From NCBI GenBank assembly GCA_945883815.1, contig CAMCYJ010000007.1, positions 11,717 through 75,716 on the forward strand: a stretch of 64,000 bases of DNA, read 5' to 3'. The notes beneath the pieces were generated by a model that was not told the origin of the DNA, ran no database searches, and saw only the letters and a program-made list of their open reading frames with translations. Position numbers and translations under genes: made by a program. Positions 19,730-56,698 of the stretch are shown here, in pieces. This DNA comes from Akkermansia muciniphila (GTDB lineage Bacteria > Verrucomicrobiota > Verrucomicrobiia > Limisphaerales > UBA9464). The first letter of the stretch is position 1. Every line of letters begins with the position of its first letter.

Positions 19730-22288
19730 ATGAAACTGATTTATATCGGGTGGATGCTCGGAATGGCTTTGGGGTGGCCCCGGTTGGTTGCCCAGACGCC
19801 AGACATCGTGTCCCTGACTTGGACCAACGGACGGCCGTCACTGGAGTTTCGCCTGGTCCCCTCGGTCTCCGATTACCGAGTTCGCGGCACCGGCACGCTC
19901 GGGACGCCGGGCAGCACCGTGGCCGGAAAACAGTCGGGCACCTTCTGGACCGCCGAGGCGGCCGCAGACGGTGATTCCCGCTTCTATCGCCTGGAATCCG
20001 TGCCTCTGGCCGCCGAGACAGTCCGCGCCAGCACGCTGCTCAACCGCATCGCCTATGGCCCGACACCCGACGATCTCGATCGCTTGGCCACCCTTGGCAC
20101 CGACGCCTACATCGAAGAACAACTGGCGCCGGAGAAGATACTCGAAAACCTGGATGAGCCCACCGCAACCGGTCCCGTCTGGCGAAAAATCACCGTCACG
20201 GGAACCGGCTCCTCCTCCAAACTCTACGTTTATCTCAGCGGTGCGGGCGACGCCTACCTTGATGACTTCCGACTGATCGCTGGGGCCTCGGACACAGGCA
20301 CCGCCCCGAACCTGATCAGCAACGGCAACTTCGAACAACCGCTGGCGGCCGCCAACTGGACCACGACCACAAATACCGCCAACTCGGCCCGCACCACGGA
20401 CTTCGTGCAAGGGGGCAATGCCTCCTTCCATCTGGTCCAAGCGGCGGCCGGAAGCACCGGCACCGACGCGGTGGTTCAAACCATTCCAACAGCCCTCAAT
20501 GCCTCGACGACCTACACGCTGAGTTTCTGGTACCTGACCCAATCCTCAAGCCTGCAACTAACCGTGCGGCTGAGCGGCAGCGGCATCACCATCACCGTTC
20601 CCCTGCAAGGCGATGCCGAATCACCGGTTCCCTACTACGCCCGGCTTCAGGACGGCAGGGCCACCATCGGCGACTTGAGGGCCTGGCATGTTCTTCATGC
20701 CGTGCAGTCTCGACGCCAACTGGCCCAAATTTTCCAGCAATTCCTGGAGAACCACTTTGTCACGGAATACTCCAAGGGGCTGACCTACTTCGATGAACGG
20801 GCCGGCTTGCCCAACGCTTGGTCGGGCCCGGAATCCACCCGTCAGGAGTTCAAGGAAAACCTCCGCTGGCGGAAGGCCTTCATGGCCCCCCAGTGCACCT
20901 TCCACGACCTCCTGAAGATCAGCGCCGAAAGTCCGGCCATGATCATCTACCTCGACACTGTCCTCTCCCGTGGTGACTACGACAGCGCCACCAAGACCAA
21001 TCGCATCGCCAACGAGAATTATGCCCGCGAACTGTGTGAACTTTTCGCCTTCGGCGTGGACAACGGCTACGACCAAGGCGACCTCGAACAAATCTCGAGG
21101 GCCTGGACCGGATGGACCGTCGAACTCTTGTCCACCAATCAGGCGGCCAATCCGTTCGCACCCCGGACCACGGTGATGATCAACTCCGGGCTCACCAACG
21201 CCACAGAACGCAACAACGTCACCAACCTCGCCGGGCTCTGGTCCTTCCGCTACCGGACGGACCGCCACGATACCCGGGTCAAGTGGGTCTTCTACGAACG
21301 GGACACCAAAGGAAACATCCTCACCAACTCGCCCAAGACCGTGCCTGCCCGTTTCGGGCCTCCATGGGCCGGCCGAACTTATGGTCTGAAGCTCAACAAC
21401 GGTTCCACCACCAACGGCATCCAGGACGGTTATCAGATCCTGCGTCACATGGCTGACCAACCTTTTACCCAAGAATACCTTTCGGTGAAGCTCTGCCGAC
21501 TGCTGGTGCACGACAATTTCCACCACGGCTACGACTTCACCGATTCGGATACCTCGCCAGAAGAATCCCTGGTCCACGATTGCATGCTGGCTTGGGAGAA
21601 TCCCCAGAACGGCGGACCCAAAGGCCAGATGCGAGAGGTGCTGCGAGTCATCCTGAAGAGCGAGCTCTTCCGCAACCCGAACACCGCGGCGGCCAAGGTG
21701 AAGACACCGCTGGAGTTCGCTGCCTCCACCCTGCGGGCGTTCCGGGCCGTGAAGCCTGACGGAACCACCACCGCCACGGCAGATGCAGCCAACCTGGTCG
21801 CCTCGGGCGGTCTGCTCGACCGGGCAGGTCGCATGCGCCTCTTCGACCGGGCTGACCCCGACGGGTACGCCGAAGATGCCGGTAGTTGGATCAGCGCAGG
21901 CACCCTCGGTGAGCGGTTGCGCTATGTGCAGTCGTTGGCCTTGGCCGGTGCGGGTCTGGCGAGCGGAACCGGCGTCCGCAGTTCACCCGATTCATCGGGG
22001 TCAAGTCGGATAGATCCTTCCGCGCTGCTGACCCTTCGGCTGACCAACGGGGCCAACCGGTCGGCCGAGGCGGTCACCGATGAGTTGCTGCGCCTTCTCT
22101 TCCCCTCGGAAGGGGCTGGCAACCTCAGCCAATACCAGGCACTGGCCATCCAGTTTCTCAATACAGCAGACAATGGCACCACCGCCTCCGACTTTTCGAG
22201 ACTGGTCCCGGGAACCAAGGAGTATGACGGCCGAGTCCGAGGCCTGGTCGCCCTGCTGCTGAGCACACCCCGCTTTCAGGAACAATGA
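19730..22288 (+). CDS. DUF1800-family protein with inserted CBM4/9-like domain
   Basis: LLNRIAYGP, FLENHFVT, SAESPAMIIYLD, NENYARELCELF, KVKTPLEF and C-terminal LLLSTPRFQEQ. Confidence 0.88.
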   Translation: MKLIYIGWMLGMALGWPRLVAQTPDIVSLTWTNGRPSLEFRLVPSVSDYRVRGTGTLGTPGSTVAGKQSGTFWTAEAAADGDSRFYRLESVPLAAETVRASTLLNRIAYGPTPDDLDRLATLGTDAYIEEQLAPEKILENLDEPTATGPVWRKITVTGTGSSSKLYVYLSGAGDAYLDDFRLIAGASDTGTAPNLISNGNFEQPLAAANWTTTTNTANSARTTDFVQGGNASFHLVQAAAGSTGTDAVVQTIPTALNASTTYTLSFWYLTQSSSLQLTVRLSGSGITITVPLQGDAESPVPYYARLQDGRATIGDLRAWHVLHAVQSRRQLAQIFQQFLENHFVTEYSKGLTYFDERAGLPNAWSGPESTRQEFKENLRWRKAFMAPQCTFHDLLKISAESPAMIIYLDTVLSRGDYDSATKTNRIANENYARELCELFAFGVDNGYDQGDLEQISRAWTGWTVELLSTNQAANPFAPRTTVMINSGLTNATERNNVTNLAGLWSFRYRTDRHDTRVKWVFYERDTKGNILTNSPKTVPARFGPPWAGRTYGLKLNNGSTTNGIQDGYQILRHMADQPFTQEYLSVKLCRLLVHDNFHHGYDFTDSDTSPEESLVHDCMLAWENPQNGGPKGQMREVLRVILKSELFRNPNTAAAKVKTPLEFAASTLRAFRAVKPDGTTTATADAANLVASGGLLDRAGRMRLFDRADPDGYAEDAGSWISAGTLGERLRYVQSLALAGAGLASGTGVRSSPDSSGSSRIDPSALLTLRLTNGANRSAEAVTDELLRLLFPSEGAGNLSQYQALAIQFLNTADNGTTASDFSRLVPGTKEYDGRVRGLVALLLSTPRFQEQ

Positions 22289-22332
22289 GGTCCGGCAACC
22301 CACCGCAGACACCGAGGCTACAAAACAGCGCC

Positions 22333-23949: not shown

Positions 23950-24060
23950 GCGACGTGAAGTCTTCAACGAGATCAGAGCCGGGAAAAACAAGCCAAGCAG
24001 AGAGGAAGAAAAGGCCTCGCCCGGCTTGAAATCCTCAGGCCTTCGGCCGACAACTCACCC

Positions 24061-25497: not shown

Positions 25498-25558
25498 GTG
25501 CCAAAAGGCTTTGCTCGCGCTTCTAAAGCCGGGTGCAAGAGCTCCTGCTCCCAATCGC

Positions 25559-27064
25559 TCAAGCCAACACGGCTTGAACTACCTCGCCGTGGACATCGGT
25601 CAGACGGCGTTCGAGTCCATTGTGGTAGTAGGTGAGTCGCTCGTGATCGAGTCCGAGCAAGTGCAGGATTGTGGCGTGGAAGTCGTGCACGGTGACCACG
25701 TTCTCGATGGATTTGTAACCGAACTCATCGGTGGCCCCATGGCTGAAGCCCTTTTTCACACCGGCTCCCGCCATCCAGCAGGTAAACCCAGCCGGGTTGT
25801 GGTCGCGTCCTTTGGCCCCCTTCTGAAAGGTGGGCATGCGCCCGAATTCGGTGCACCACACCACCAGCGTGTCTTCCAATAGACCGCGCTGGCGCAAGTC
25901 GATGAGCAGACCGGCCGTCGGCTTGTCGAGGACGGGTCCGTGCAGACTGTATTGGCTGGCGATGTCCTTGTGGCCATCCCAGTTGCTCACCCCTTCGCCG
26001 CCGGTCTGGTAGGCCCCATTGAAGAGCTGAACGAATCGAACCCCCTTTTCGATCAACCGGCGGGCGAGGATGCAATTGCGGGCATAGGCTGTGCGAGTGT
26101 CCTTGATCTTGGTGCCGCCCTCGTCGGCACCATACAAGCGAAGGATGTGTTCGGGCTCGCTCGACAAGTTGGCCACCTCCGGGACGGTGAGCTGCATGCG
26201 GGCGGCCAATTCGTAGCTGGCAATTCGCGCGGCCAGTTCGGTGTCGCCGGGAAACCGCTCGGCGTGGCGTTCATTGAGGCGCTGGAGAAAACTCCGCGTG
26301 GCGCTGTCACTGGAGGCGGCCACGCCACCGGGGCGCGCCAGATTGCGGATCGGGTTTGTGGCGTTGAACTCGGTGCCCTGGAAAGCCGCCGGCAAAAAGC
26401 CGGGAGCCCAATTGTTGACGCTGTTCTGAGGCTTCCCACGCGAATCCGGAATGGCCACATAGGCGGGCAGGCTCTGATCGTCGCTGCCCAGCGCATAGGT
26501 CATCCAGGCGCCCATGCTGGGAAATCCATCCAGCGTGTAGCCGGTGGACATGTAATTCTCGCCGGGGCCGTGCGTGTTGGTCTTCCCCTGCATGGAGTGG
26601 ATGAAGCACATCTCATCAACCAGATCGCCCAAGTGCGGCAGGAGGTCGGAGATCATCTTGCCGCTCTGGCCGCGCGGACGGAACTCCCACGGGCTCTTGT
26701 TCAGCGCACCCTGCTCGCCCTGGAAGGTGATGAGCTTCTCGGTGCCGGGCATGGGCTGGCCGTGTCGGCGGATCAACTCCGGCTTGTAGTCGAAGGTGTC
26801 GAGCTGGCTGCAGGCCCCACTGCAGAAAATCACCAGCACGTTCTTGGCACGCGGGGGGAAGTGGGATTGGCGCGCCCCGTAAGGATGGCCGGGTTCGATC
26901 AGGGGCCGAAGCGGCTCCCGGCGGTCTGCATTCTCAGCGAGCAACCCCTGGCGACCCAGCAAATGGGTCAAGGCAATGGAACCGAGGCCGAGGCCGGTGT
27001 CGCCGAGGAAGCGCCGCCGATTGAGCAGCGGGCTTTGAAAGGCAGGAGGGATCGGGGCGCTCAT
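25559..27064 (-). CDS. DUF1501-family protein (Tat signal)
   Basis: [41 protein letters not shown] and GRDHNP; start overlaps the upstream stop (ATGA). Confidence 0.92.
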
Positions 27065-29580
27065 GGAATGAAGAGGAACTCGTTGGCGTTGAGGACACCG
27101 CGGCACAAGGCCTGCAATCCCTCGGTACGGACAAAGGCCATCGCCTCGTTCGCCTCGGCAGGCTGCGGAGTCCGGTTGAAGGCCAACTGCCACGCCACCC
27201 GGACCTGGGACTCCGGTTGATCGCCCGCCTCACGCCGAAGGCGGTCGGCAAAAGTCCGGGACTGGTCGAGGATGAATCGACTGTTGAACAGGTTGAGCGC
27301 CTGCAACGGCGTGGTGGAGACGCTGCGCCGGGGCATCACCAGACTGCCATCCGGACAGTCGAACGCACCAAAGATGCCGTCCTGCTCCATACGAACCTTG
27401 AAGGCATACACCATGCGGCGCGTGTCAGCTGGCCCGAACGCTTCCTTGGGGTGGTAGTGATAGACGTTCTCCCGATCCACCTCATGGAGGTAGAAACTGG
27501 GACCTCCGCGGGCGCGGTCCAGATTGCCGCTGACGGCCAGAATACTGTCACGGATCCCCTCGGCCTCGATGCGCCGCGGCGGGAAGCGCCACAGCAATCG
27601 GCTGCCCGCATCCACCGCGAGGGCTTGTGGGCGAGGCAGGCCGGATTGCCGCCAGGTGGCCGAGGACAAGATGCGCCGCTGCAAGTGCTTCAGGCTCCAC
27701 CCATGCTCGATCAGGTCGCTGGCCAACCAATCCAGCAACTCCGGATGCGAGGGCTTGGAGCCGTTCTTGCCGAAATCGTTGGGTGTGTTGACCAACCCCA
27801 CTCCGAACTGATGCTGCCAAACGCGATTGACAATCACCCGGGCGGTCAGCGGGTTGTCCGATCGGGCGATCCAGTCTGCCAAAGCGAGACGACGGTCCCG
27901 CTCGGGGGCGTTGGTGGACAACACCAGGGGTTGGAACAAGGCCAGTGTTCCCGGAGACACGGTTTCCCGTTTCAGGAGCGGATCGCCACGATGCAACCGA
28001 TGGGTTGGCCCCGGTTGCGAGAACGTTCCGGAATACACGGTCGGCGACTTCGCCAGCTCGCCCTTCTGCTTGCGGGCCGATTCGAGTTCTGCCAGCCAAC
28101 GCCGTCCTTGGGCAGCCTCGGAATCGGCGATGCCATCGAAGCGGTACTCCGGTCCGGCAGGCTTCGTGGATTCGCCGGCGAATGGCGTGCGATCCTCGGA
28201 GGAGGCCACCGTCTTCCAGGCACCGGGCTCGGTTGCCAGTTCGATGCGGTACTGGGTCGTCAGTCGATCCTTGAAATTCCCCTCGCGGTCACGCCCCCAG
28301 ACCACACGGTCGATTCGAACGACCTTGGGGAACTCCAATTGCACCCAGCCCTTGCCCGCCTCGCTGGCAATCCACGACCGGGCATTGCCGGGACGCCCAT
28401 CATTCAAGTGCTCCAGCTTGTGGATCTCATACCCGGCCAGACTCCCCGAGGCCGTGGCTTTGGTTCCTGCCGAGGCCAGAGCCACATTGAGATTGCCCGA
28501 CCCAGCCTCGAGCTCATCGATGCACGGTTCGCCACCGCTGGAGGCCAGGATGGTGAAGCGAAGGAATCGCGCTTCGGTTTCCGCAAAGCGGTCTTCATTC
28601 CGGACAGAATTCACGGCCGGGCGAGGGACTTTGCGGGCCGTCGAAGAAGAAGGCACCGCCTTCGGAATGAACACGTCGAGGCGTTTTTCCAAATCGCGGA
28701 TGCGGTCTTCGATCTGCGCCAAGCTCGCGGCCTGTTCCGGTGATGAGGGCAACGGGCGTTCGCCGTGTTGGACGCCAGAGAAGATCGCCGCCATCGAGTA
28801 GTACTCGGTGTGGGTGATGGGATCGAACTTGTGGGTATGGCAGCGCGCACAACCCAAGGTGAGCCCCAGGAAGGAAGTTCCGGTGGTGCCCAGCATGTCG
28901 TCGATCTCGTCGGCCCGTTGCTGAGCGGTCAGCGTGATGTCCGGGCTCTTCACGATGTCCACCGGCCCGCCGACCAGGAACCCCGTGGCCACGTCCACGC
29001 CCAGCGCGTCCCCGGCAATTTGCTCGCGGATGAAGCGGTCGTAGGGCTTGTCGGTGTTGAAGGCGTCAATGACGTAATCGCGGAAGCGCCACGCACTCAA
29101 GCGCTCCCGGTTGGTCTCGAACCCGTTGCTTTCCGCGAAGCGGATGACATCGAGCCAATGCCGTCCCCAGCGTTCTCCGTAGCGGGGATCCTCCAGCACG
29201 CGATCCAACCAGCGCTCCCAGGCTCGGGGCTGCAGGTCGGCCAGGAACGCCGACACCTCTTCCGGAGTCGGCGGCACCCCGAGCATCACCAAGTACAACC
29301 GCCGGATGAGGGTTCCTCGATCGGCCTCGGACGACGGCGTCAACCCGCTCTCGGAGAGGCGGGCTTGAATGAAGGCATCCACCGGATTGGCAGCACCGGC
29401 AGAGATTTTGGCGGCGGGAATCGCCGGTCGGACCACCGGCTGGAAGGCCCAGTGCGAGTCCGCCGACGGCACTTCGGCCGCGCTCAATGCCAGGGACCAC
29501 AGCGAGGCGATCCCCAGCCAGCTCCGGAGTTTTCTTCCTGCTTCACCCACCGGGGTTTTGGATGCCTTCGATGGATTCAT
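27061..29580 (-). CDS. DUF1549/DUF1553 (PSCyt2/PSD1) protein with inserted F5/8 type C-like domain
   Basis: [55 protein letters not shown] and TTPLQAL. Confidence 0.92.
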
Positions 29581-45824: not shown

Positions 45825-48800
45825 TCACCGGCCGTCAGCGCGAGCCTGAAGGGGCGCGCCGGTCTCGAGGCGCAGGTCGGCCCAATAGCCGAATTCCCAG
45901 GACCAGTCGGTGGCGGCGTTCTCGAGGCGAATAACCACGCGGCGGCCGGCGTACGGCGTGAGATCGAGGGAGACATCCTTCCAGCGCGGAGCCTCGTGGT
46001 TCACCGCTTGGCGATGGATCACCTCGCCCTCGACCACCACCCGAAGCTCCCAATCGCCTTGGTCATGGGCGGCCACGGCGAATTTCAGAGCTGTCTTACC
46101 CTCCCGCGGCAAGTTGATCGCCCGTACCAAGGCAGCCGGACGTCGAGCGTCGATGGGATGGGTCATGAGCACATTGCGCCGACCCACCGCTTCGGGGTAC
46201 TTGGCGGGCGCGCCTTCAAACTCCGGACAATCCACCTGCCAACCCGGGGCCCAGAGTGCCAGTGATTCGCCATCGGTTGCCACGGCCGGGCCCTTGTTGT
46301 TGGCATCGGGGAGAACTGCGGCGGTTTCACCGATGAGTTCCTTGCGGCGCTGGGGCGTCAGGGGCTTGCCATCTTGAGGGGGCGCGAGGATGTACCAAAT
46401 GAGGTTGCGGAAATCGGCGTCGGGCATCTCGTCGAGCCCTTCAGGCATGGCCGAATTTGGGGTCACGCGCAACGCCTTCACGTTGGATCGATCGATCACC
46501 ACTTCACTCGAACCGGCCATGAGCAGTTTCACCCGGTTGGCGGTGTTCTCGACCATCCGCCCGCTGTGGGTCTGGCCATCGACGGTCTCGACTTCGACAT
46601 TCTCGTAACCCTGACCGATGATTTCGTTGGGGTTGATGACATTGTGCAGGAGCGCATCGAGTGAACTGCGGCCAACCCCCGTCAAATCGGGCCCGACGGC
46701 CGCGCCCTCTCCGTGGAGTTGATGACAGACCAGACACGTCTTGGCGGCGAGCTCATGCCCCGCCTTCAAGTCCACAGGCCCATCGATCACCACCTTCCGC
46801 TTGGCGGCGATGCGTTGCAGGATCTCCGGGCCGGAAGCCTGGAACCGCCCGAACAGACGACCCGCCTTCTCGCGTTCATCCGGATTCTGCGAACCCAACA
46901 ACGAGCGCACTGTCGTGGCCGGAATGTCGGCCTTGGCGATGTCGCCCCGGTCGAGGGCGTTGTAGAGGGCCCACTTCCAGGCGCCCCGAGTGGTGGAGAA
47001 CTGGGCGGCAGCCGTGCGCACCGCCGGGGTCATGGCCTTCCAGTGAGCGAGCAATTGGCGGGCGGTCTCGTCGTTGCCCGTCTCAGTCAATACGCGGACG
47101 GCGGCCACGCGGAGCGCGTCGGAAGCATCGGATCCGGCCAAGGCCAGCAGCGCTCGCCGACCGTCTTCGCCGCGCTGATTGCGAAGCCCTTGGATGGCCT
47201 CCAGACGCTCGGACTCCGGGAGGGCGGTGTCGCTCACGCGCGCCAACTGTGCTCGCAGCGCGCCGACATCGCCCCACAAGGCGCCCAGCTGACGGGCCTT
47301 GCCCACAGTGGCGAGGTTCGAACTGGAGAGGAGTTTCTGGAGCAGTGCCTCGGTGGGTTGAGTGGGGGCCAAGGCCTTGCCGCGCTGGCCATCAATCAGG
47401 CCATCCAGCAAGTACGGGATGAGCGGAGAGGCCGAGTCGAGCGACGCCACGATCTCCAGCGTCTTGTCCACGAGCCAATCCTTCCGGGCGTCGCAGAAGC
47501 GGCGGACCATCTTGTAGGCCAGCTTGCCGGACAGGGGCAGGTAGCGTTCCCCCTTCTCCTGGAACCAGGCGGCCGTGATGTTGGGGTCGTAGAGCAAGTT
47601 GGGCTCGATGGCCATCCACAGCAGGAAGGGCAAGTCGCGGTCGGTGGACGCCTTAGCGGTCCCGAGAAGTCTCTCGGTCACCGAGGTCACCGCCGGGCCC
47701 AGGACGGCGATGTCGTGGCCCGGGGGCGTATTGACCGTCAGCGAGCCGCCCGAAAACTGACGCAAGGCCGTGGCCACCGCGGCGAGCACCGTTGGGTTTT
47801 CATCGGTGGCCAACAATTCGAGACGTTTGTGGACTCGCTCGGTGATGCGGTTGTTCTCACCGGTGAATCGAGCCGCCCACATGCGCAGTGACGGCACGGA
47901 CGCATCGGCCGCCTCGTCGAGGACGGCATCATCGGCCAAGCCTGCGCTGAACAAGGTCCAGAGGGCGGCCAAGCGGGCGTCTTCGGAGCCCTGCGATTTC
48001 ATCCGTTGGAACAGCACGGATTTCTGAGAGGCGATGTCCGGGCGTTCGGCAAGTATTCGCTGGGCCATGCGACGTTGCCAGACGTTGGAGTGGCCCAAGG
48101 TTTGGACGAGTTCGGGGGTGCTCCGCTCGGCCAATGCCAATCCCGCGGGCCGCGCCGGCACGGGCCGACCGGGTTGGTCTCCGGCCCAGACAATGCGCCA
48201 GATGCGACCGCGCTCGCGATCCACGCCTTCCGGGTCGGCACCCGCGTTCTGGTAGCAGGGATACTTGTCGTACCAGTCCATCACCCACACCGCGCCGTCG
48301 GGACCGGTTTGCATGCTCACCGGCATGAACCACCCGTCGTTGGCGCGCAGGAAATCGCCATTGGATGAGGCGAGGAAGGTGCTGCCCTGGGGCGTCAGGC
48401 GATCGCGATGAATGGCGTTGTCATGGATGTTTCCCTGGAGGGCCATGCCGCGGAACTCCGCCGGGTATTGATCGCCCAGGTAAATGTTCACACCCGCATA
48501 AGCCGCCATGTGGTGCTTGTGGTCGACGATGCTGGGCAGCAAGTCGTAGGCGTAGGGATAGGGCGGTTGACCTGCCTGGCGCTGATAGAGGCCTCCCGGG
48601 GCGAGGTGGAAGAAATGATCGATGACGCAGGCGCTGACGAAGGCGTTGCCCCGGGCATCGAAGTCCACGCCCCACGGATTGGACGTGCCCTCGGCGAAGA
48701 TCTCCATGCGCCGGGTCTTCGGCTGGAATCGCGCCACCCCCGCCGTCAGCAACACGGGTTCTCCAGGCTTGGACGGATCCACGGCCTGGGTCCGGGTGAA

Positions 48801-49442
48801 CACCCCGTGGGTCATGTACATCTGGCCGTCGGGACCCCAGGTGAAGCCATTGAGGAGTTCGTGACGGTCTTCGAGACCAAAGCCGGTCTGGACAATGGTT
48901 TGCTTGTCGGCAACGAGATCTCCGTCGGTGTCCTCGAGGAAATACAAATTCGGCGCAGCCCCCAGATACACGCCGCCATTGGCCACCAGAATACCCGTGG
49001 CCAGAGTGAACCCGTCAGCGAATACCTTCACCGAGTCGGCCCGGCCGTCGCCGTCGGTGTCTTCGAGCACCTTGATGCGGTCGCGCCCCTTCTCTCCCGG
49101 CTTGGTGCCCAGCGGATACTCGTAGAGTTCCACCACCCAAAGGCGTCCTCGATCGTCCCAGGTCATGGCCACGGGATTGACCACTTCGGGCTCCGAGGCG
49201 AAGAGCCTCGCTTCAAAGCCCGGCAACAGCGTGAAGCGTTTGCGGGCTTCTTCGGGGCTGTAGGCGGGGTTGTCGGCCGGCTTGTGCTGACCCGCCAACT
49301 GCCGTCCCGACGGCGCGTTGGTGTACACTGGAAACCCAAACTTCGGATGCCGGGGCACTTCGGCCAGGAGGACCGAGGGGGTGACGGCTGAAAGTCCTGC
49401 GGCAAGGAGTGCGGCGAGGGACAGGCTCGATCGAAAGGTCAT
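45825..49442 (-). CDS. PVC-type heme-binding CxxCH protein (beta-propeller dehydrogenase-like + HEAT repeats + cytochrome c + C-terminal jelly-roll)
   Basis: FASEPEVVNPVAMTWDDRGRLW, EDTDGDGRAD, GPDGAVWVMDW, CLVCH, VGPDLTG and SAMPEGL. Confidence 0.9.
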   Translation of the reverse strand: MTFRSSLSLAALLAAGLSAVTPSVLLAEVPRHPKFGFPVYTNAPSGRQLAGQHKPADNPAYSPEEARKRFTLLPGFEARLFASEPEVVNPVAMTWDDRGRLWVVELYEYPLGTKPGEKGRDRIKVLEDTDGDGRADSVKVFADGFTLATGILVANGGVYLGAAPNLYFLEDTDGDLVADKQTIVQTGFGLEDRHELLNGFTWGPDGQMYMTHGVFTRTQAVDPSKPGEPVLLTAGVARFQPKTRRMEIFAEGTSNPWGVDFDARGNAFVSACVIDHFFHLAPGGLYQRQAGQPPYPYAYDLLPSIVDHKHHMAAYAGVNIYLGDQYPAEFRGMALQGNIHDNAIHRDRLTPQGSTFLASSNGDFLRANDGWFMPVSMQTGPDGAVWVMDWYDKYPCYQNAGADPEGVDRERGRIWRIVWAGDQPGRPVPARPAGLALAERSTPELVQTLGHSNVWQRRMAQRILAERPDIASQKSVLFQRMKSQGSEDARLAALWTLFSAGLADDAVLDEAADASVPSLRMWAARFTGENNRITERVHKRLELLATDENPTVLAAVATALRQFSGGSLTVNTPPGHDIAVLGPAVTSVTERLLGTAKASTDRDLPFLLWMAIEPNLLYDPNITAAWFQEKGERYLPLSGKLAYKMVRRFCDARKDWLVDKTLEIVASLDSASPLIPYLLDGLIDGQRGKALAPTQPTEALLQKLLSSSNLATVGKARQLGALWGDVGALRAQLARVSDTALPESERLEAIQGLRNQRGEDGRRALLALAGSDASDALRVAAVRVLTETGNDETARQLLAHWKAMTPAVRTAAAQFSTTRGAWKWALYNALDRGDIAKADIPATTVRSLLGSQNPDEREKAGRLFGRFQASGPEILQRIAAKRKVVIDGPVDLKAGHELAAKTCLVCHQLHGEGAAVGPDLTGVGRSSLDALLHNVINPNEIIGQGYENVEVETVDGQTHSGRMVENTANRVKLLMAGSSEVVIDRSNVKALRVTPNSAMPEGLDEMPDADFRNLIWYILAPPQDGKPLTPQRRKELIGETAAVLPDANNKGPAVATDGESLALWAPGWQVDCPEFEGAPAKYPEAVGRRNVLMTHPIDARRPAALVRAINLPREGKTALKFAVAAHDQGDWELRVVVEGEVIHRQAVNHEAPRWKDVSLDLTPYAGRRVVIRLENAATDWSWEFGYWADLRLETGAPLQARADGR

Positions 49443-49592
49443 GGCATCGGTGGCTGGAGGCTTTGGAAAGATCGGAATGCGGAATGTTGAAAAGGCAAGG
49501 TCCACCGGACCTAAACCCGGCGGCCGATACCACGGAACCCGTTGGAACGGTGTGTGAAGCAACCCGCCGGTTCCTCGCGGGCCACTGCGACT

Positions 49593-50468
49593 TCAGGAGG
49601 CGAAGATCTGATCCATCTCGGTGGAGAGCTTCTTGAGGCCCTCCGGGGAGCCAGCACCGCCCTGTTCAGCAATGCCCCACCCTTGATAACCAATCTCATC
49701 GATGGCCTTCATCACCGCGGGCCAGTTGTTGTCGCCCTTGAGGAACTCGGCATCGAAGCCAGCCCACTTGCCCTGCTTGTCGGCCTTGGCCCGGCTGTAT
49801 TCCTTGATGTGCAGCGTGGCGATGCGCTTGCCCAGGATGCGAACCCACTGCTCGGGCCATCCGTAATGGATCAGGTTCCCCACATCGAGGTGCCAGCCCA
49901 CCATCGGGCTCTTGAATTCATCGACATAGCGGGCGGCCTCGAGCGGGCTCAGCAGGAAATTGTTCCAGACGTTCTCGATGGCGATCTTCACGCCCAACTC
50001 CTCGGCCAGCGGCACCACCTTGCGGATCTCGGCCTGAGAGCGGGTGTAGGCGTCGGCGTAGCTAATGGAGGCATTGACCACCGCCGGCACGAGCAACACG
50101 GCCGGCGCCCCGTAGGCCTTGGCATCGCGCAGCGACAGCTTGAGCCCCTCAACACCGACCTCGCGGACAGCCGGATTGGGGTCGGACAGCGGCTTGGCCC
50201 AGTGCGTGTGGCAGCACACGGAACCCGCCTTGAGACCGGTGGACTTCAGGGCGGCGTTCATCTCGGCATTGTCCATGCCGCCCATCGGCTCCACCCCGTC
50301 ATAACCCGCCGCCTTGACCGCCTCCATTTTCTGCATCACCGAACCGGGGACGCCCACGGTGCCCCACATGATCCCCTTGAGGATCTTGCGCTTGGGGGCG
50401 GTCTGCGCGATGGCGGGCAACGAAGCTCCGAGGAGGGCGGCGGTCTGAAGAAAGTGACGGCGATTCAT
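49593..50468 (-). CDS. Tat-exported sugar phosphate isomerase/epimerase (xylose isomerase-like TIM barrel)
   Basis: MNRRHFL Tat signal, IAIENVWNNF, HLDVGN, LHIKEY and AEQGG. Confidence 0.9.
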   Translation of the reverse strand: MNRRHFLQTAALLGASLPAIAQTAPKRKILKGIMWGTVGVPGSVMQKMEAVKAAGYDGVEPMGGMDNAEMNAALKSTGLKAGSVCCHTHWAKPLSDPNPAVREVGVEGLKLSLRDAKAYGAPAVLLVPAVVNASISYADAYTRSQAEIRKVVPLAEELGVKIAIENVWNNFLLSPLEAARYVDEFKSPMVGWHLDVGNLIHYGWPEQWVRILGKRIATLHIKEYSRAKADKQGKWAGFDAEFLKGDNNWPAVMKAIDEIGYQGWGIAEQGGAGSPEGLKKLSTEMDQIFAS

Positions 50469-50582: not shown

Positions 50583-51884
50583 TTAGGACAACTTGGTCTT
50601 GCCCGGAACCGGCAGCGGCTCGATCGGGAGCTTCATGTCCCAAGACATGTTGTCCGGAACGAGCTGAATCTTTGAATTGAGGGCCTGCTCCCAGGTGACC
50701 TCCTGGCCGGTGTAAGCCGAAAGGCGGCCCATGATGCCAGCCAACGTGCTGTTGACCATGCGGTCGCCGTCGTTGTGGAACTCGCCGGCGCGAATGGCCT
50801 TGTAGAGGTGCTGATGTTCGACCACGTACATGTCGGGATTTTCACCGCGATAACGCCAGCCGTTTGATCCGTCGGCGTTCTTGAAGTAGGCGTTGGACCA
50901 GCCGTTCCAGCCCTTGCCCTTGCCACCGAGCACGTAGTCGCTGTTGTCGCTGTAGCAGTTGGCGATCTGACGCTGGGCGATGACGCCGCGGGCGCCGTTG
51001 GCCCACTCGTAGGTGGCCGTCATGTGGTCAAAAATGTTGCCCTCGTAGTTCGGGTGCACCCGACCGCCGTTGGCCACGACCTTGGCCGGCGGCTTGTCGC
51101 CGAAGGCCCACATCATCTTGTCCACCGTGTGGATGCACTGCTCGACGAAGCCGTCACCAGCCAGCCAGGTGAAGTTCATCCAGTTGCGCATTTGCCACTC
51201 GAGGTCGCCCACGCCGTCCTTGCGTTGCGAGGGAGCCTGCATCGGCTTCACCGGGCCGGTCAGATAGGTGCCGTACATCGCCAGCACCTCGCCGATCTCA
51301 CCCTCGTTGATGCGCTTGAAGAACTCGCGCCGCGGCAACGAATAACGCCAGCAGTAACCGGCCACGATGTTGAGCTTGGCTTCCTTGGACATCCGGACCG
51401 ACTCCATCACGTGACGGATGCCGGCGCTGTCGGTGGCCATGGGCTTCTCGCAGAAGATGTGCTTCTTCTTCTCGACCGCGTAGCGGAGGTGGGTCGGACG
51501 GAATCCCGGGGGCGAGGCCAAGAGCACCACGTCAACACCGGCGTCGATCACCTTCTGGTAGGCATCCAGACCGACGAAGCGCTTGGAGGGCTCCACCTGC
51601 ACGCGGCCGGGGAACTGCTTGTCCAAGCTGGAGTGGCTCTGCTTGAGCTGATCTTCAAAGGCGTCGCCCATGGCCACAAGAATCAGGTTCTTGTCGGCCT
51701 CCAGCGCATTGCCGGCGGCACCGGTTCCTCGACCACCGCAGCCCACGAGGCCGATGCGGATGGTGTCGGTGTTGGCGGCGAAGGCTCGGTCTCGCATCAG
51801 CAGGGCCGGTGCGGCAAACGTCAGGGCAGCGGCGGTGGAGCTGGACTTGAGAAAGTCCCGGCGGTTCTCGAGAGGTGAATTCAT
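50583..51884 (-). CDS. Tat-exported Gfo/Idh/MocA-family oxidoreductase
   Basis: NRRDFLK Tat signal, GLVGCGGRGTGA, HIFCEKP and GDGFVEQCIH. Confidence 0.93.
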   Translation of the reverse strand: MNSPLENRRDFLKSSSTAAALTFAAPALLMRDRAFAANTDTIRIGLVGCGGRGTGAAGNALEADKNLILVAMGDAFEDQLKQSHSSLDKQFPGRVQVEPSKRFVGLDAYQKVIDAGVDVVLLASPPGFRPTHLRYAVEKKKHIFCEKPMATDSAGIRHVMESVRMSKEAKLNIVAGYCWRYSLPRREFFKRINEGEIGEVLAMYGTYLTGPVKPMQAPSQRKDGVGDLEWQMRNWMNFTWLAGDGFVEQCIHTVDKMMWAFGDKPPAKVVANGGRVHPNYEGNIFDHMTATYEWANGARGVIAQRQIANCYSDNSDYVLGGKGKGWNGWSNAYFKNADGSNGWRYRGENPDMYVVEHQHLYKAIRAGEFHNDGDRMVNSTLAGIMGRLSAYTGQEVTWEQALNSKIQLVPDNMSWDMKLPIEPLPVPGKTKLS

Positions 51885-52099
51885 GGCTGGGAAATGACGA
51901 CGCTCTTGGTCCGAAATTCAGCCCTCCCCGTCAAGCTCGGTGCCCGAAAACACGCAGAAAAATCACTCACCTCTCCGCGAAGAACCATGTGCGGCGACGC
52001 TCAAAATCAAAACACCATCCAACCTCGGGCCCAAAACTCTTTCGAAAAGACTGCTTGCCGATGCGTCTCTCCCCGATACCTTGCGCATCCGCTTTTGGC

Positions 52100-52174
52100 G
52101 GGTCGGTAGCTCAGCGGTAGAGCAGCGGCCTTTTAAGCCGTTGGTCCAGGGTTCAAATCCCTGCCGACCCACCA
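52100..52174 (+). tRNA. tRNA-Lys (anticodon TTT)
   Basis: Cloverleaf with acceptor GGGTCGG/CCGACCC, anticodon loop CTTTTAA, T-loop TTCAAAT and encoded CCA. Confidence 0.97.
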
Positions 52175-52245
52175 TCCGTTTTGGCGTAAAATTATAGCGT
52201 GACAATCATGGCGATAGTCTGCGAAAGACTCGCCGCTCTTTTTTA

Positions 52246-52320
52246 GACCCCATCGTCTAGCGGTTAGGACACCGCCCTTTCACGGCAGTAACCGGGGTTC
52301 GATTCCCCGTGGGGTCGCCA
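52246..52320 (+). tRNA. tRNA-Glu (anticodon TTC)
   Basis: Cloverleaf with acceptor GACCCCA/TGGGGTC, anticodon loop CTTTCAC, T-loop TTCGATT and encoded CCA. Confidence 0.97.
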
Positions 52321-52323
52321 TTT

Positions 52324-52360
52324 AAAACCCTCGGAAACACAACGTTTCCGGGGGTTTTTT
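52324..52360. terminator. Terminator after the tRNA pair
   Basis: AAAACCCTCGGAAAC-ACAAC-GTTTCCGGGGGTTTTTT. Confidence 0.85.
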
Positions 52361-52428
52361 ATTTTTCAGCCGCCACATCCGACCCATTCCTACCCGTTCC
52401 GACCTCAACCACATCAATCCAAGCCCAG

Positions 52429-53934
52429 TCAGGCCAGGATTCGCCGGATGATCTCGGGCTCGACCACGCCGGTCAGTTTCTGGTCGAGGCCACCGTAGAA
52501 GTAAGTGAGTCGCTGGGGATCCAGACCCATGAGGTGCAAGATCGTGGCGTGCAAGTCGCGGATGTGATGGCGATCCACAGCGGCCTCGTGGCCCAGTTCG
52601 TCTGTCTCGCCATAGCTGGTGCCGCCACGGACCCCACCACCCGCCAGCCAGTACGTGAAGCCCTTGGGGTTGTGGTCGCGGCCACCGTTGCCGCCCTGTG
52701 AGACCGCTTGGCGACCAAACTCGCCGCCCCAAACGATGAGCGTCGAATCGAGCAGTCCCCGCTGTTCGAGATCGGCCAAGAGGGCGGCGATGGGGCGATC
52801 GATCTCCGGCCCGTGAATGCGGAGGTTCTCCTCGACGCCATTGTGGGCATCCCAGTTCTGCTGCTGGTGACCACCTCCGTGATAAATCTGGATGAAGCGA
52901 ACACCCCGCTCGACCAAGCGCCGGGCGATGAGGCATTGGCGGCCGAAGGGCGCGGGCCCCAAGGCCAGCGGGTGATCATCCGGGCGCGACTGGTTCACGC
53001 CATAGCTCTCCAACGTAGCGGCCGATTCCTGCGACAGGTCGAGGGCGTCCGGGGCGCTGCGCTGGAGTTGGAAGGCCAACTCGTAGCTCGCGATCCGGGC
53101 CTGCAATTCGCTGAAACCCGGACGCGAGGCCAAATGCCCGGCGTTGAGCTCATTGAGCGTGGAAATGGTGTCGCGCTGGATTTGCGCCGGTGACCCGTCG
53201 GCCGGATCGAGGTTCAGGATGGGATTGCCCGAGGCCCGGAAGACCGTGCCCTGGTAAGCCGCGGGCATGAATCCGCTGGACCAATTGGCCGAACCGCTAA
53301 TGGGCCCTCCGCGCGGATCGAGCATGACCACGTAGCCCGGGAGGTTCGCGTTGGCCGAACCCAAACCATAGGACATCCAAGAACCCATCGACGGCCACCC
53401 TTGCAAAACACGGCCGCTGTTCATCTGGATCATGGCCGAACCGTGGGCGAAGGAGTCGGCATACAGCGACTTGATCACCGCCAGTTTGTCCATGTGGGCC
53501 GAGAGATGCGGCAACACGTCGCTGCACCACAAACCCGACTGGCCGTACTGACGGAAAGTCCGTTTGGAGCCGAGCAGGGTTCCGGGCTTCACGTCGCGGC
53601 GACGCTGTTCGAGCGACGCAGTCTGCCCGTGGCGACGGTTCAACTCCGGCTTGTAGTCGAAGAGGTCCATTTGCGAGGGCCCTCCGTACATGAACAGAAA
53701 AATGCAGGCCTTGGCCTTCGTTGGAAGGTGGGGTGGTTTCACGCGCATCGGATCCGACGACACGCTGGCGGCCACGTCGGGGCGCGCGAAGAAACCATCG
53801 GCCTCGAGCATTCCGGACAATGCCAAGCTGGTGAAACCCGCACCGAACTGGGCCAGGAAATCACGCCGGGATCCGGCGCACAGGGGAGAACTTGCGCGGG
53901 AGGCGCTGGAAGACGCGGAAGATTCAGTCGACAT
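52429..53934 (-). CDS. DUF1501-family protein (Tat signal)
   Basis: SRRDFLA, FMYGGPSQMDLFDYKP, ARRLVERGVRFIQ, GEFGR and GRDHNP. Confidence 0.93.
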   Translation of the reverse strand: MSTESSASSSASRASSPLCAGSRRDFLAQFGAGFTSLALSGMLEADGFFARPDVAASVSSDPMRVKPPHLPTKAKACIFLFMYGGPSQMDLFDYKPELNRRHGQTASLEQRRRDVKPGTLLGSKRTFRQYGQSGLWCSDVLPHLSAHMDKLAVIKSLYADSFAHGSAMIQMNSGRVLQGWPSMGSWMSYGLGSANANLPGYVVMLDPRGGPISGSANWSSGFMPAAYQGTVFRASGNPILNLDPADGSPAQIQRDTISTLNELNAGHLASRPGFSELQARIASYELAFQLQRSAPDALDLSQESAATLESYGVNQSRPDDHPLALGPAPFGRQCLIARRLVERGVRFIQIYHGGGHQQQNWDAHNGVEENLRIHGPEIDRPIAALLADLEQRGLLDSTLIVWGGEFGRQAVSQGGNGGRDHNPKGFTYWLAGGGVRGGTSYGETDELGHEAAVDRHHIRDLHATILHLMGLDPQRLTYFYGGLDQKLTGVVEPEIIRRILA

Positions 53935-56698
53935 AGGCCACTTCGTTGAGGTTGAGCATGAGCAGACAAGCGCTCTCGAAAGCCCGGTGACGGGCCCAAT
54001 TGGGCGGGCGCTCCGCCCACAACGGTCGAGGCGCACCACCCGATGGGGTCCACCGAAATTGATCCAAACTCACACCGGATCCCCAAGCTCGAACACCCAA
54101 ATGCCCCGAGGTCGAGAAACCCGTGGCCGCAGTGGCCTGCAACGCGGGAGCCGCATCGTCTCCCAAATAGACCCTCATGCGCCCGGCTTCGAGACGAACC
54201 CGAACCTTCAAGCGATCTCCCCGCAAAGCGACCCCATCGCGGGAAGCCAGCGACACCACCCCGGCGCCCGTCAACTGACGCAGCACCAATCGACTTTCTC
54301 GGGGCTCGAAGACCAACTCATGCCCGGTCTCGCCGGTGCCGCCAGATCCGACCGAAGCGCGCAAGAGCAGACCCACCTGGGAGCAGCCCACCTGGGGCAC
54401 GATTTCCACTGTCAGTTCGCCGTCGCTCACCGGGGCCCCACTCCAAAAAGCAAACGGACCGCGCCCTGGTTCCAATGCCCGATTGCCCTCGTATTCGCGC
54501 GGCCACAGACCTTTATGGCATTCCCAATCGGACCCGGGTGGCACCAGGAATCGATCTGGCGGAAGCGCATTGAAATAAGGCACCGACAACGTGTCAGGCA
54601 CGTCCGGTCGGAAGGTCAACCGGTGGCGCAGGCCTTCCCAAACCGATTCCTGACGCCGCTCATATTGGGACATCCGGGCCAATTCTTCCGGCAAGGGTTT
54701 ACGGCCGGTGGCCCGAGTCCAGGCGTGTTGCAAGAGCGTCTCCAAGGACGCACCGGATCCGGCTTCGGTGCGAATGCGATGGGCCAGTTCAACGGCCTGC
54801 TCTTGCACGAAGGCGTCATTCAGCAACATCAAGGCCTGCGGGGCCACCGTGGTGATGGGACGTTCCGAGAGGGGGGAGGTGGCGTTGCTGTAATCGAAGG
54901 CCTCAAACATCGGCACCATGGAAGTTCGCCGGATGTAGGCATAGACACTGCGCCGGGCCCGCTCACCGGTTCCGGACACCTGCCAGTCGGTGCCAGGTCG
55001 GGAGCCTCCCGCCAGCACCTCGCCGCTGAGCGCCGGGAAAAAACCCCGCCCACCGGCCTCCAAATTCAAGGCGCCCGAGATCGCCAGCAGGCTGTCGCGC
55101 AACGCCTCGGCATCCAGGCGACGGAGATTCTGACGCCACAAGAGGTCATTGGCTGGATCCGCCTTGAGGGCCTCTGGATTTTGCACCGACGACGATTGCA
55201 TCCAGGTGGCCGAGGTGAGGATGAGCCGGTGGAGAGCCTTGATCGACCCACCCTGGCGGATGAATTCGCTGGCCAGCCAGTCCAGCAGTTCCGGGTGAGT
55301 CGGAAGGCTTCCCACGCGCCCGAAATCAGTGGTGGTTCGGACCAACCCTCGACCGAAATGGTGATGCCAAACCCGGTTCACCAGCACCCGGGAGGTCAAT
55401 GGGTTGGCAGGGCTGGCGATCCACTCCGCCAAGGACTGCCGACGACCCGCCGTGGGCAAACCCTCTTTCCCGACCGGCGCATCGCCCCCTCCGGCTGCCC
55501 GCAGGAATCCGGGAGCCACTTCAGCACCCGGAGACCGGGGATTGCCTCGGGCCAATACTTGCACCGCCGGCGTCGGGCCACTGCGCTCACGGGCCGCCAG
55601 AGCCCATTCGAAGGGAGGCCCGGCCTTCTGGATTGCATCCATGCGTCGGGTGAGGTCTTTGCGAACCACCTCGTTGGTTGTCGCCGTGCGTTGCGTCTCC
55701 AACTCCTGCCTCTGGCGTTCCTGCGAGGCTTTCCAGGTCGCAATTTCAGCCGGTGAGGCCAAGGGCGCGAAGGACGGCGAGTCGAGTCCCGGGCCACCGT
55801 TGACGGCCGCATGCAATGGCCGGAAAATGGCGAGCATCGAATAGTAATCCCGCTGCGGAATGGGATCGAACTTGTGGTCGTGACAACGGGCACAGGCGAC
55901 GGTCATTCCCAGGAAGGCCGCCCCGGTGGTTCCCACGATGTCATCGAGCTCGTCGTACTCGGCCTGGAGTTTGTCGTCCGGCTCATCGTCGTGGACACCC
56001 ATGCGCAGGAAGCCGGTGGCCACCACCGCGTCCTTCCAGGCATTGCCCGCCCGACCATCTTTTTCCAACAGCGTCGCGGCCAATTCATCGCCGGCGATTT
56101 GCTCGCGGATGAACTGGTCGTAGGGCTTGTCCTGATTGAAGGCGCGGATCACGTAGTCTCGGTAGCGCCATGCTTCGCGTTTTTCTCCGTCCCGCTCGTA
56201 GCCATTGCTCTGGGCAAACCGGACGACATCCAACCAGTGGCGCCCCCACCGCTCGCCATAGCGCGGACTGGCCAACAACGCCTCGACCCGCCGAGACCAA
56301 GCCTCCGGAGACGGATCGCGTTCGAAGGCTGCGATCTCCTCGGGGGTCGGTGGCAACCCCACCAGATCGATATGGAGCCGCCGCAGGAGTTCCCGAGGGC
56401 TGGCCTGCGGACTCAGGCCGATTTTTTTCTCGGCAAGCTGCTGACGGACAAAAGCATCAATGGGGTTGGCGCTCGCTGGCTGGATTCCTCGAGGGATGCC
56501 CGGTGAGGTGATGGGACGGAAGGCCCACCAGTCCTGTGCGGCCCCGACCGTTTCGGCGGCCAGCGAAACGCAAAGGCCCAAAACCAGACAGAGACCCACC
56601 GGAATCCACGCGGACACGAGTGCCCTGCGGCTCCCCAAGCCAAGCTCTCGCCCTTCAAGAGGCGTGCAGCGTGGCGTCGCTGGATTGGGAGAAGTCAT
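53924..56698 (-). CDS. DUF1549/DUF1553 protein with ConA/DUF1080-like insertion near the C-terminus
   Basis: [55 protein letters not shown] and C-terminal LNLNEVAYVD. Confidence 0.92.
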   Translation of the reverse strand: MTSPNPATPRCTPLEGRELGLGSRRALVSAWIPVGLCLVLGLCVSLAAETVGAAQDWWAFRPITSPGIPRGIQPASANPIDAFVRQQLAEKKIGLSPQASPRELLRRLHIDLVGLPPTPEEIAAFERDPSPEAWSRRVEALLASPRYGERWGRHWLDVVRFAQSNGYERDGEKREAWRYRDYVIRAFNQDKPYDQFIREQIAGDELAATLLEKDGRAGNAWKDAVVATGFLRMGVHDDEPDDKLQAEYDELDDIVGTTGAAFLGMTVACARCHDHKFDPIPQRDYYSMLAIFRPLHAAVNGGPGLDSPSFAPLASPAEIATWKASQERQRQELETQRTATTNEVVRKDLTRRMDAIQKAGPPFEWALAARERSGPTPAVQVLARGNPRSPGAEVAPGFLRAAGGGDAPVGKEGLPTAGRRQSLAEWIASPANPLTSRVLVNRVWHHHFGRGLVRTTTDFGRVGSLPTHPELLDWLASEFIRQGGSIKALHRLILTSATWMQSSSVQNPEALKADPANDLLWRQNLRRLDAEALRDSLLAISGALNLEAGGRGFFPALSGEVLAGGSRPGTDWQVSGTGERARRSVYAYIRRTSMVPMFEAFDYSNATSPLSERPITTVAPQALMLLNDAFVQEQAVELAHRIRTEAGSGASLETLLQHAWTRATGRKPLPEELARMSQYERRQESVWEGLRHRLTFRPDVPDTLSVPYFNALPPDRFLVPPGSDWECHKGLWPREYEGNRALEPGRGPFAFWSGAPVSDGELTVEIVPQVGCSQVGLLLRASVGSGGTGETGHELVFEPRESRLVLRQLTGAGVVSLASRDGVALRGDRLKVRVRLEAGRMRVYLGDDAAPALQATAATGFSTSGHLGVRAWGSGVSLDQFRWTPSGGAPRPLWAERPPNWARHRAFESACLLMLNLNEVAYVD

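Follow-up and report, generated by a model that had tools for sequence, protein, structure and literature searches.

Two kinds of DUF1501-linked gene pair with different beta-sandwich inserts in a freshwater verrucomicrobial genome

Introduction

The PSCyt1, PSCyt2 and PSD1 domains were reportedly named by Studholme and colleagues in 2004. In Planctomycetes, Verrucomicrobia and Lentisphaerae, genes of the DUF1501 family, whose products carry twin-arginine motifs, adjoin genes for PSCyt1/PSCyt2/PSD1 proteins that occasionally contain a Laminin_G_3 or F5_F8_type_C domain, and the latter proteins were proposed to be cytochromes whose electrons go to particular sugars or proteins as acceptors (Kamneva et al., 2012; PMC3542564). 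PSCyt genes with carbohydrate-binding modules (CBMs) lie beside conserved unknown genes in freshwater Verrucomicrobia, for which a part in carbohydrate metabolism was suggested (He et al., 2017; PMC5615132). DUF1501 also occurs in operons with DUF1800, for example in proteobacteria, where such operons adjoin chitin synthase genes acquired by horizontal transfer (Goncalves et al., 2016; PMC5122149). No function of the DUF1501/PSCyt2–PSD1 module was found in later papers of the library searched. Here we analyse three DUF1501 gene pairs in a 64,000-nucleotide stretch (the window) of contig CAMCYJ010000007.1, positions 11,717 to 75,716, from assembly GCA_945883815.1, deposited as Akkermansia muciniphila; the source is a freshwater Verrucomicrobiota genome of 3.96 Mb in 189 contigs, ∼91% complete.

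An original prediction, made by a model from the letters of the window, had described these pairs as three copies of one periplasmic system, a two-subunit redox or enzyme core diversified by exchange of glycan-binding cassettes. Its functional part restates a published hypothesis (Kamneva et al., 2012; He et al., 2017). We find that the three loci almost certainly belong to two known two-gene modules, DUF1800 with DUF1501 (pair 1) and PSCyt2–PSD1 (DUF1549–DUF1553) with DUF1501 (pairs 2 and 3). Pairs 2 and 3 resemble the module of Kamneva et al. in that PSCyt2, PSD1 and a CxxCH motif lie in one protein, the next gene encodes a DUF1501 protein with a signal for twin-arginine translocation (Tat), paralogues number dozens per genome, and the cytochrome-like protein may carry a Laminin_G_3 or an F5_F8_type_C/CBM domain. 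They differ from it in having no PSCyt1 (no Pfam match), in the apparently permuted discoidin domain of pair 2, and in the DUF1080-type domain of pair 3, which lies before the last PSD1 helix and not in the linker. Pair 1 shares with the proteobacterial operons the order DUF1800 then Tat DUF1501, but its orthogroup has an immunoglobulin (Ig)-like domain and a CBM4/9-like insert and is without a chitin synthase context. What is new here is a hairpin slot at which inserts are swapped, the joint divergence of partner and DUF1501, a DUF1080-type domain placed in front of the conserved terminal helix, and support for a permuted discoidin.

Results

Each pair is a predicted translationally coupled unit

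Pairs were located from a list of open reading frames (ORFs) and a Pfam scan, and their junctions were read directly in the DNA. At 19730–23949, 25559–29580 and 52429–56698, as predicted, two overlapping genes on the same strand encode a large exported partner followed by a DUF1501 protein. Pair 1, on the forward strand, consists of an 852-residue DUF1800 protein (19730..22288; PF08811, 221.8 bits) and a divergent DUF1501 protein (22285..23949; PF07394, 67.7 bits), the partner stop overlapping the DUF1501 start in an ATGA at 22285–22288. Pair 2, on the reverse strand, consists of a PSCyt2–PSD1 partner (27061..29580; PF07583, 258.9 bits; PF07587, 298.5 bits) and a 501-residue DUF1501 protein (25559..27064; PF07394, 495 bits), again with an ATGA, at 27061–27064, in which the DUF1501 start lies over the partner stop. 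In pair 3, also on the reverse strand, the DUF1501 gene (52429..53934; 501 residues; PF07394, 498 bits) has its ATG 11 nucleotides inside the gene for the 924-residue partner (53924..56698; PSCyt2, 282 bits; PSD1, 289.6 bits), the overlap being 53924–53934.

The Tat motifs of the three DUF1501 proteins read TRRNFF, NRRRFL and SRRDFL, respectively, and all 40 DUF1501 paralogues in the alignment keep the RR; all three partners begin with hydrophobic Sec-type signals. These junctions and leaders show each pair to be one predicted translationally coupled unit, with a Sec-type signal on the partner and a twin-arginine signal on DUF1501. None of the six pair proteins was matched by any NCBIfam model.

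Both proteins that the original prediction had listed as DUF1549 contain a single CARCH (CxxCH) motif, as it stated, and no PSCyt1 match. In pair 3 the motif (C269, C272, H273) and a following H275 are encoded at 55880..55894 on the reverse strand; they are invariant in 105 orthologues and kept in paralogues. The equivalent residues of pair 2 (C244, C247, H248, then H250; 28837..28851, reverse strand) show at least 95% conservation among 39 paralogues.

The partners are of two kinds

The description of the pairs as one system in three copies did not survive comparison of the partners. When the DUF1800 orthogroup, an alignment of low diversity (2.6 effective sequences), was compared by hhalign in turn with PSCyt2, PSD1 and the entire pair 3 orthogroup, the probabilities were 0.4–0.6%; the possibility that DUF1800 is a distant PSD1/PSCyt2 homologue was therefore rejected, at <1% in all three comparisons, though with so low a diversity a very remote relationship could have escaped them. 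No CxxCH is present in the sequence of the DUF1800 partner. The DUF1501 protein of pair 1 also stands apart: it was not recovered by phmmer with the pair 2 DUF1501 as query, was recovered weakly (90 bits) by an iterated paralogue profile, and aligns to that profile only at the C-terminal motifs WDxH, EFGR and GxDH, all of which are kept. The three insert positions are likewise not equivalent, lying inside DUF1800 in pair 1, in the PSCyt2–PSD1 linker in pair 2 and at the C-terminus of PSD1 in pair 3. Because DUF1800 has neither CxxCH nor detectable PSCyt2/PSD1 homology, and because the pair 1 DUF1501 is a separate subtype, we conclude from these sequence comparisons that the window holds two related module kinds with a common DUF1501 subunit, and not three copies of one scaffold.

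Both partner types have just one feature in common, a similar-looking C-terminal end, in which a hydrophobic helix is followed by x-F-x-x-x-COOH. The ending ...LLN(L/S)(N/D)E(F/T)xxx-COOH is found in 38 of 39 PSCyt2–PSD1 proteins. In pair 3 it reads ...LLNLNEVAYVD, and the terminal PSD1 helix and tail (...LLMLNLNEVAYVD) are encoded at 53927..53998 on the reverse strand, with helices at residues 901–921 in the structural model; the tail of pair 2 lies at 27064–27110. The DUF1800 protein ends ...LLLSTPRFQEQ-COOH (22250–22285), and this end is kept in its orthologues. This tail is a candidate site for the docking of DUF1501.

Pair 3 carries a ConA-like domain before the last helix of PSD1

Behind its signal, the pair 3 partner is laid out as PSCyt2 (residues 79–295), a hairpin (residues 316–358), PSD1 (residues 419–689), a beta-sandwich (residues 694–885; 54044..54619, reverse strand) and the terminal helix. 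The C-terminal 245 residues of the window copy gave zero Pfam matches at E<0.01. Five orthologues of ∼50% identity, however, match PF06439, the DUF1080 or 3-keto-disaccharide hydrolase family, with 24.6–31.2 bits (gathering cut-off 26.8 bits) over profile positions 12–186 of 187. An AlphaFold model of the partner, based on 105 orthologues, has a mean predicted local distance difference test score (pLDDT) of 86 and a predicted template modelling score (pTM) of 0.86, with pLDDT >90 in the sandwich. The best Foldseek match to the sandwich is CBM66 of Bacillus subtilis (4b1m; E 4e-8, template modelling score 0.73), followed by concanavalin A (ConA)-like glucanases and galectins. Model and Foldseek matches together identify the insert as a ConA-like jelly-roll fold, which with the orthologue Pfam matches is DUF1080/CBM66-like, and the model places it before the last PSD1 helix (residues 901–921), into which position it is inserted and not merely appended to the protein. 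In a search of the Protein Data Bank (PDB) with the whole partner (E≤1e-3), all 40 matches fell on the beta-sandwich and none on the helical core.

The DUF1080 family includes both enzymes and binding domains. Like its AL2/BT2 3-keto-glucoside lyase-hydratases and like CBM66 4b1m, the pair 3 domain combines a ConA-like fold with orthologues at the Pfam threshold and with Gfo/Idh/MocA and TIM-barrel genes nearby. Unlike the free DUF1080 enzymes, it lies inside a PSD1 protein, its window copy falls under Pfam detection, and its neighbourhood is unconserved in most orthologues.

The discoidin of pair 2 is probably circularly permuted

In the pair 2 partner, PSCyt2 (residues 66–271) and PSD1 (residues 563–839) enclose a discoidin (F5/8 type C)-like insert at residues 326–480 (28141..28605, reverse strand), which has 2796 homologues at E<1e-5. 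Excised and in native order, it matches F5_F8_type_C with 33.8 bits (gathering cut-off 28.2 bits) at residues 375–464, covering profile positions 2–86 of 127. Permutation was examined by moving the first strands behind the rest of the insert and rescoring with Pfam. When residues 328–362 were moved to the end, the F5_F8_type_C score rose from 33.8 to 42.4 bits and coverage extended to positions 2–118 of 127; F5_F8_type_C_2 gained likewise, from 25.4 to 33.4 bits, and was then covered in full. Alignment by hhalign with a paralogue of normal strand order (C100) likewise gave local matches in swapped order. Since de-permutation raises both score and coverage, circular permutation is supported, and the insert is probably a member of the discoidin fold with permuted strand order. 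It looks like the tail of one discoidin copy joined to strands 1–6 of the next.

Duplication followed by truncation is the classical path to circular permutation. The C100 paralogue (C100:9941–12736) has, in the same linker slot, a discoidin of normal order followed by a stub similar to the beginning of another copy, and could represent an intermediate toward the permuted discoidin of pair 2. A further homologue of the pair 2-type partner, P0316, is 64% identical over the insert, and its precomputed Pfam annotation adds Peptidase_S9 and Hydrolase_4; it would be a PSCyt2–PSD1 protein fused to a serine hydrolase.

Pair 1 belongs to a conserved DUF1800 orthogroup

The DUF1800 partner consists of a signal peptide, an Ig-like beta domain (residues 26–92) and the helical DUF1800 core, within which residues 151–291 (20180..20602, forward strand) form a CBM4/9-like beta-sandwich. 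Its AlphaFold model, from 90 orthologues, has pLDDT 88.5 and pTM 0.86; Foldseek found zero matches to it in the PDB at E≤1e-3. CBM_4_9 matches with 25.0 bits in the whole protein, under the cut-off of 25.9 bits, and with 29.6 bits in the excised segment, which is a compact beta domain in the model (pLDDT 84–96). Its first three strands (residues 151–184) resemble the end of a CBM4/9 module. De-permutation extended CBM_4_9 coverage from positions 2–84 to 2–127 of 136 with a gain of only 0.4 bit, and a MAM profile gained 4.5 bits, which makes circular permutation of this module plausible. Thus all three beta-sandwich inserts named in the original prediction are real and different from one another; of the two permutations that it proposed, that of the discoidin is probable and that of the CBM4/9 module only plausible.

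About 120 DUF1800 proteins of equal length and 47–97% identity, all from Verrucomicrobiota, were found among the matches listed, and this verrucomicrobial DUF1800 with a CBM-like insert is, by these alignments, a conserved orthogroup. A DUF1501 gene follows DUF1800 in two relative loci as well (L058 and L059). At L058 (1433–10258; DUF1800 52% identical), the DUF1800–DUF1501 pair lies directly 3′ of a PSCyt2–PSD1 and DUF1501 pair on the same strand, so that the two module types are neighbours in that relative too. The Ig-like domain (window 19805–20005) is modelled with seven strands at pLDDT ∼90 and is matched by no Pfam model. A 1338-residue ORF without a Pfam match (15602–19618, forward strand) ends 111 nucleotides 5′ of the partner gene, on the same strand.

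Inserts are probably exchanged at one linker slot

The genome-wide catalogue of inserts that the original prediction had proposed was built from six-frame ORFs by iteration of hidden Markov models together with Pfam. It contains 39 PSCyt2–PSD1, 42 DUF1501 and 1 DUF1800 proteins; in this genus PSD1 genes number 24–62 per genome, and here they make up ∼2% of genes. Adjacent PSCyt2–PSD1 and DUF1501 genes on the same strand form 32 pairs, in 30 of which the partner precedes DUF1501, and DUF1501 follows the partner in all six orthologous loci that were checked. CxxCH is kept in all 39 partners, its C, C and H together with the second His two residues on being present in at least 95%, and 23 of the 39 also have an N-terminal PSCyt1 domain with its own CxxCH.

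The linker between PSCyt2 and PSD1 varies from 37 to 706 residues. It contains Laminin_G_3 in 6 of the 39 paralogues and F5_F8_type_C in 4–5; the other long linkers make up six or more additional sequence classes that have no Pfam name, and some linkers have no insert. An alignment of linkers places the inserts between two helices that correspond to the bare hairpin of pair 3 (residues 316–358), which has no linker insert. A C-terminal insert was found in pair 3 only. Single-linkage clustering of the linkers was uninformative because nearly all merged through their common flanks. On a maximum-likelihood tree of the concatenated PSCyt2 and PSD1 cores, no fewer than 17 changes of insert class are required, as compared with 20–24 in shuffles and a minimum possible of 10, and a Laminin_G protein falls with one normal and two permuted discoidins in a single clade of 95% support. 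This scatter of insert classes over the core tree and their mixture within a close clade support cassette exchange between close PSCyt2–PSD1 paralogues at a fixed linker slot, and the alignments show these pairs to differ, as far as can be predicted, mainly in the beta-sandwich module on the partner. The swappable cassette of the original prediction is thereby upheld for the PSCyt2–PSD1 pairs, which have one variable linker slot and many insert classes among 39 partners, but not for pair 1 as a version of the same scaffold.

Partner and DUF1501 diverge together

Distances between partner cores were strongly correlated with those between the DUF1501 proteins beside them (Mantel r 0.91 for 32 pairs, 0.73 for the 26 pairs of the main clade; 0 of 10,000 permutations as high). 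As judged by these distances, the PSCyt2–PSD1/DUF1501 pairs of this genome duplicate and diverge as units, which fits cognate pairing. The explanation that we prefer is that the two products would come together in the periplasm as the subunits of one enzyme.

Alternatively, the co-transcribed, exported proteins might form no complex and have separate roles in the envelope, for example in association with the membranes of cell plans in the Planctomycetes–Verrucomicrobia–Chlamydiae (PVC) group, the inserts serving protein or envelope contacts and not the binding of nutrient glycans. F5_F8_type_C, Big_2 and WD40 extras have been classed as protein–protein interaction domains (He et al., PMC5615132), a correlation with intracellular membranes has been described (Kamneva et al., PMC3542564), and the three window pairs have no flanking genes for carbohydrate-active enzymes or sulfatases. 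Separate roles nevertheless sit badly with the strict adjacency, order and start/stop overlap over dozens of paralogues and distant orthologues and with the co-divergence of partner and DUF1501, and the module is also present in bacteria without such cell plans, as in the proteobacterial DUF1800–DUF1501 operons (PMC5122149). We consider this explanation improbable.

DUF1501 may be a metal-dependent enzyme

The conserved residues of DUF1501 are D92, D150, H165, WD363xH365, E406, R409, R420 and H422. A profile of 22 DUF1501 paralogues matched, in the PDB, only LtaS (E 0.003) and sulfatases (E 0.05–0.6), around GEFGR...GRDH, and a search with a single DUF1501 sequence likewise gave only marginal LtaS/sulfatase matches. 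Among solved proteins, sequence similarity to DUF1501 is thus limited to LtaS and the S1 sulfatases, and its export and conserved Asp/His residues are a further likeness; in contrast to them, DUF1501 has no conserved CxPxR or SxPxR, and the similarity is marginal. The sulfatase signature C/S-x-P/A-x-R is not found at a conserved DUF1501 position, any CxPxR being present in 5 of 42 paralogues. In the three window proteins its matches are confined to non-conserved positions: two fall in the N-terminal leader, a third at ORF residue 95 of pair 3 and a fourth at residue 238 of pair 1. DUF1501 was accordingly rejected as an S1 formylglycine sulfatase, the signature being missing at the nucleophile position. 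We read DUF1501 as a candidate metal-dependent enzyme of the alkaline-phosphatase-type fold.

On the two-subunit explanation, DUF1501, with a putative alkaline-phosphatase/sulfatase fold but no sulfatase signature, would provide the metal-dependent catalytic site; the helical partner would target the substrate through its lectin-like or DUF1080-like module, with its conserved C-terminal tail as the candidate contact to DUF1501; and in the PSCyt2 type the invariant CxxCHxH would provide a haem c or metal centre. CxxCH is the canonical attachment motif of haem c, of which the second His two residues on is not part. The genome encodes TatC and two PF01578 cytochrome c assembly genes, and haem binding by PSCyt2 is plausible from the motif, the Sec-type export and these maturation genes. 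It is an assumption all the same, since PSCyt2 does not resemble cytochrome folds, and the extra invariant His makes a plain metal site possible.

This ambiguity leads to a second alternative, in which CxxCHxH would hold a structural metal or form a disulfide and the partner only targets, anchors or chaperones DUF1501, as DUF1800 would. The second invariant His outside the canonical haem c motif, the dissimilarity of PSCyt2 to cytochrome folds, the pairing of DUF1800 with DUF1501 without any CxxCH and the similar C-terminal tail on both partner types are all in accord with such a non-redox scaffold. It has to contend, however, with the canonical form of CxxCH, the Sec-type signals, the cytochrome c maturation genes of the genome and the joining, in most paralogues, of PSCyt2 to a genuinely cytochrome-like PSCyt1. 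On balance we hold it to be rather unlikely, though it is the alternative that we take most seriously.

A 3-keto-glycoside lead beside pair 3

On the reverse strand, ∼0.5 to 2.8 kb from pair 3, lie genes for a Tat Gfo/Idh/MocA dehydrogenase (NRRDFL; 50583–51884) and a Tat xylose-isomerase-like TIM barrel (NRRHFL; 49593–50468), followed by a 1245-residue DUF7133–HEAT–cytochrome c protein (45825–49562, reverse strand). Members of the DUF1080 family have 3-keto-glycosides as substrates and operate with a Tat Gfo/Idh/MocA enzyme and a TIM-barrel lyase (bioRxiv 10.1101/2024.03.25.586180), and the authors who described this route suggested that cytochromes might re-oxidise the dehydrogenase (bioRxiv 10.1101/2024.03.25.586180; PMC9007349). 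The DUF1080-like insert of pair 3 and the three neighbouring genes could thus make up the enzyme set of an oxidative 3-keto-glycoside route, which we regard as an open lead.

A third explanation of the module builds on this lead: PSCyt2–PSD1 proteins would be periplasmic cytochromes carrying electrons from sugar oxidation by Tat Gfo/Idh/MocA enzymes to the respiratory chain, the insert would bring the sugar or 3-keto-sugar, and DUF1501 would be an accessory. Besides the DUF1080-type domain of pair 3, whose family is active on 3-keto-glycosides, and the Tat genes near it, which recur beside the orthologue at locus L060, it can draw on the class-I-type PSCyt1 cytochrome domain of 23 of the 39 paralogues and on an enrichment of directly adjacent Gfo/Idh/MocA genes, present within 700 bp of 4 of the 39 PSCyt units as compared with ∼0.4–0.6 expected, in a post hoc test. 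Within 5 kb, by contrast, the genome-wide count was 5 of 28 against 3.5 expected, with no enrichment, and the neighbours are missing from four of six orthologous loci: L062–L064 are without the Gfo/Idh/MocA and TIM-barrel genes, and at L061 the Gfo gene is 6 kb off. A conserved link between the DUF1080-type pair and the Gfo/Idh/MocA and TIM-barrel genes was therefore rejected. Moreover, genes for tRNA-Lys (52100–52174) and tRNA-Glu (52246–52320), both on the opposite, forward strand, and a terminator hairpin with a 15-bp stem 3′ of the latter (52324–52358) sit between the pair 3 DUF1501 gene and the Gfo/Idh/MocA cluster, so that the two are separate transcription units. Electron transfer would also leave the universally linked DUF1501 without a role and pair 1 uncovered, and we think it an unlikely account of the module.

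Contigs from lake metatranscriptomes match both tRNAs. On the other side of pair 3, ∼120 nucleotides 5′ of the partner gene and on the same strand, genes for a resistance–nodulation–division efflux pump (AcrB family, 1096 residues) and a membrane fusion protein (353 residues) occupy 56819–61167.

Discussion

We have found that DUF1501 is paired in this window with two kinds of partner, and that PSCyt2–PSD1/DUF1501 pairs, of which the genome has dozens, diverge together and vary at one slot. The observations of the original prediction are confirmed, and its interpretation is partly supported. Taken as a whole, coupled two-gene modules whose products act together, one being a probable vehicle for exchangeable inserts, offer the best explanation, which we favour somewhat over the alternatives; for the mechanism in particular, a substrate-targeted enzyme of two subunits, we go only so far as to call it a tentative proposal that may well prove wrong.

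Several points tell against that mechanism. DUF1501 resembles solved structures only weakly (E 0.003 to 0.6), and none of its residues is assigned a catalytic role. No known cytochrome fold resembles PSCyt2, by Pfam in the two window proteins or by Foldseek outside the sandwich. DUF1800 has no CxxCH, so that a redox role could not apply to the modules in general. When Foldseek was run against the PDB, the helical core of neither partner type found a counterpart among solved structures. Glycan binding by the inserts we infer from family names only. Joint duplication of adjacent genes by itself gives co-divergence, which consequently does not prove contact. In two lake metatranscriptomes a few short contigs fall on the locus, with a single pair, at 55542–55831, at 1–2 mismatches, and this sparse coverage is not enough to show co-transcription. 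To our knowledge, no experiment exists for any member of these families.

The findings on slot, tail and neighbourhood can be joined in a more ambitious reading, which at present we judge to be a long shot. PSCyt2–PSD1/DUF1501 pairs would form a repertoire of substrate-specific periplasmic enzymes comparable to polysaccharide utilization loci, in which the slot, at the hairpin tip or in the loop before the last PSD1 helix, accepts lectins or catalytic modules. Pairs of the pair 3 type would join in 3-keto-glycoside cleavage, their haem re-oxidising the neighbouring Tat Gfo/Idh/MocA dehydrogenase, and the C-terminal tail of PSD1 and DUF1800 partners alike would be a docking peptide for DUF1501.

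Few protein families without a known function are as large as DUF1501 and PSCyt2/PSD1; the DUF1501 protein of pair 2 alone finds, at E≤1e-3, 23,718 cluster representatives (50% identity) in a library of 1.84 billion proteins. The details added here do not reveal that function, but they are useful for experiments, for which a defined slot with natural swaps, strong co-divergence and a conserved tail provide handles, as does the pair 3 insert, which comes from an enzymatically characterised family and lies beside matching pathway genes. The role of these pairs is a major unread part of the physiology of PVC bacteria in lakes, soils and oceans.

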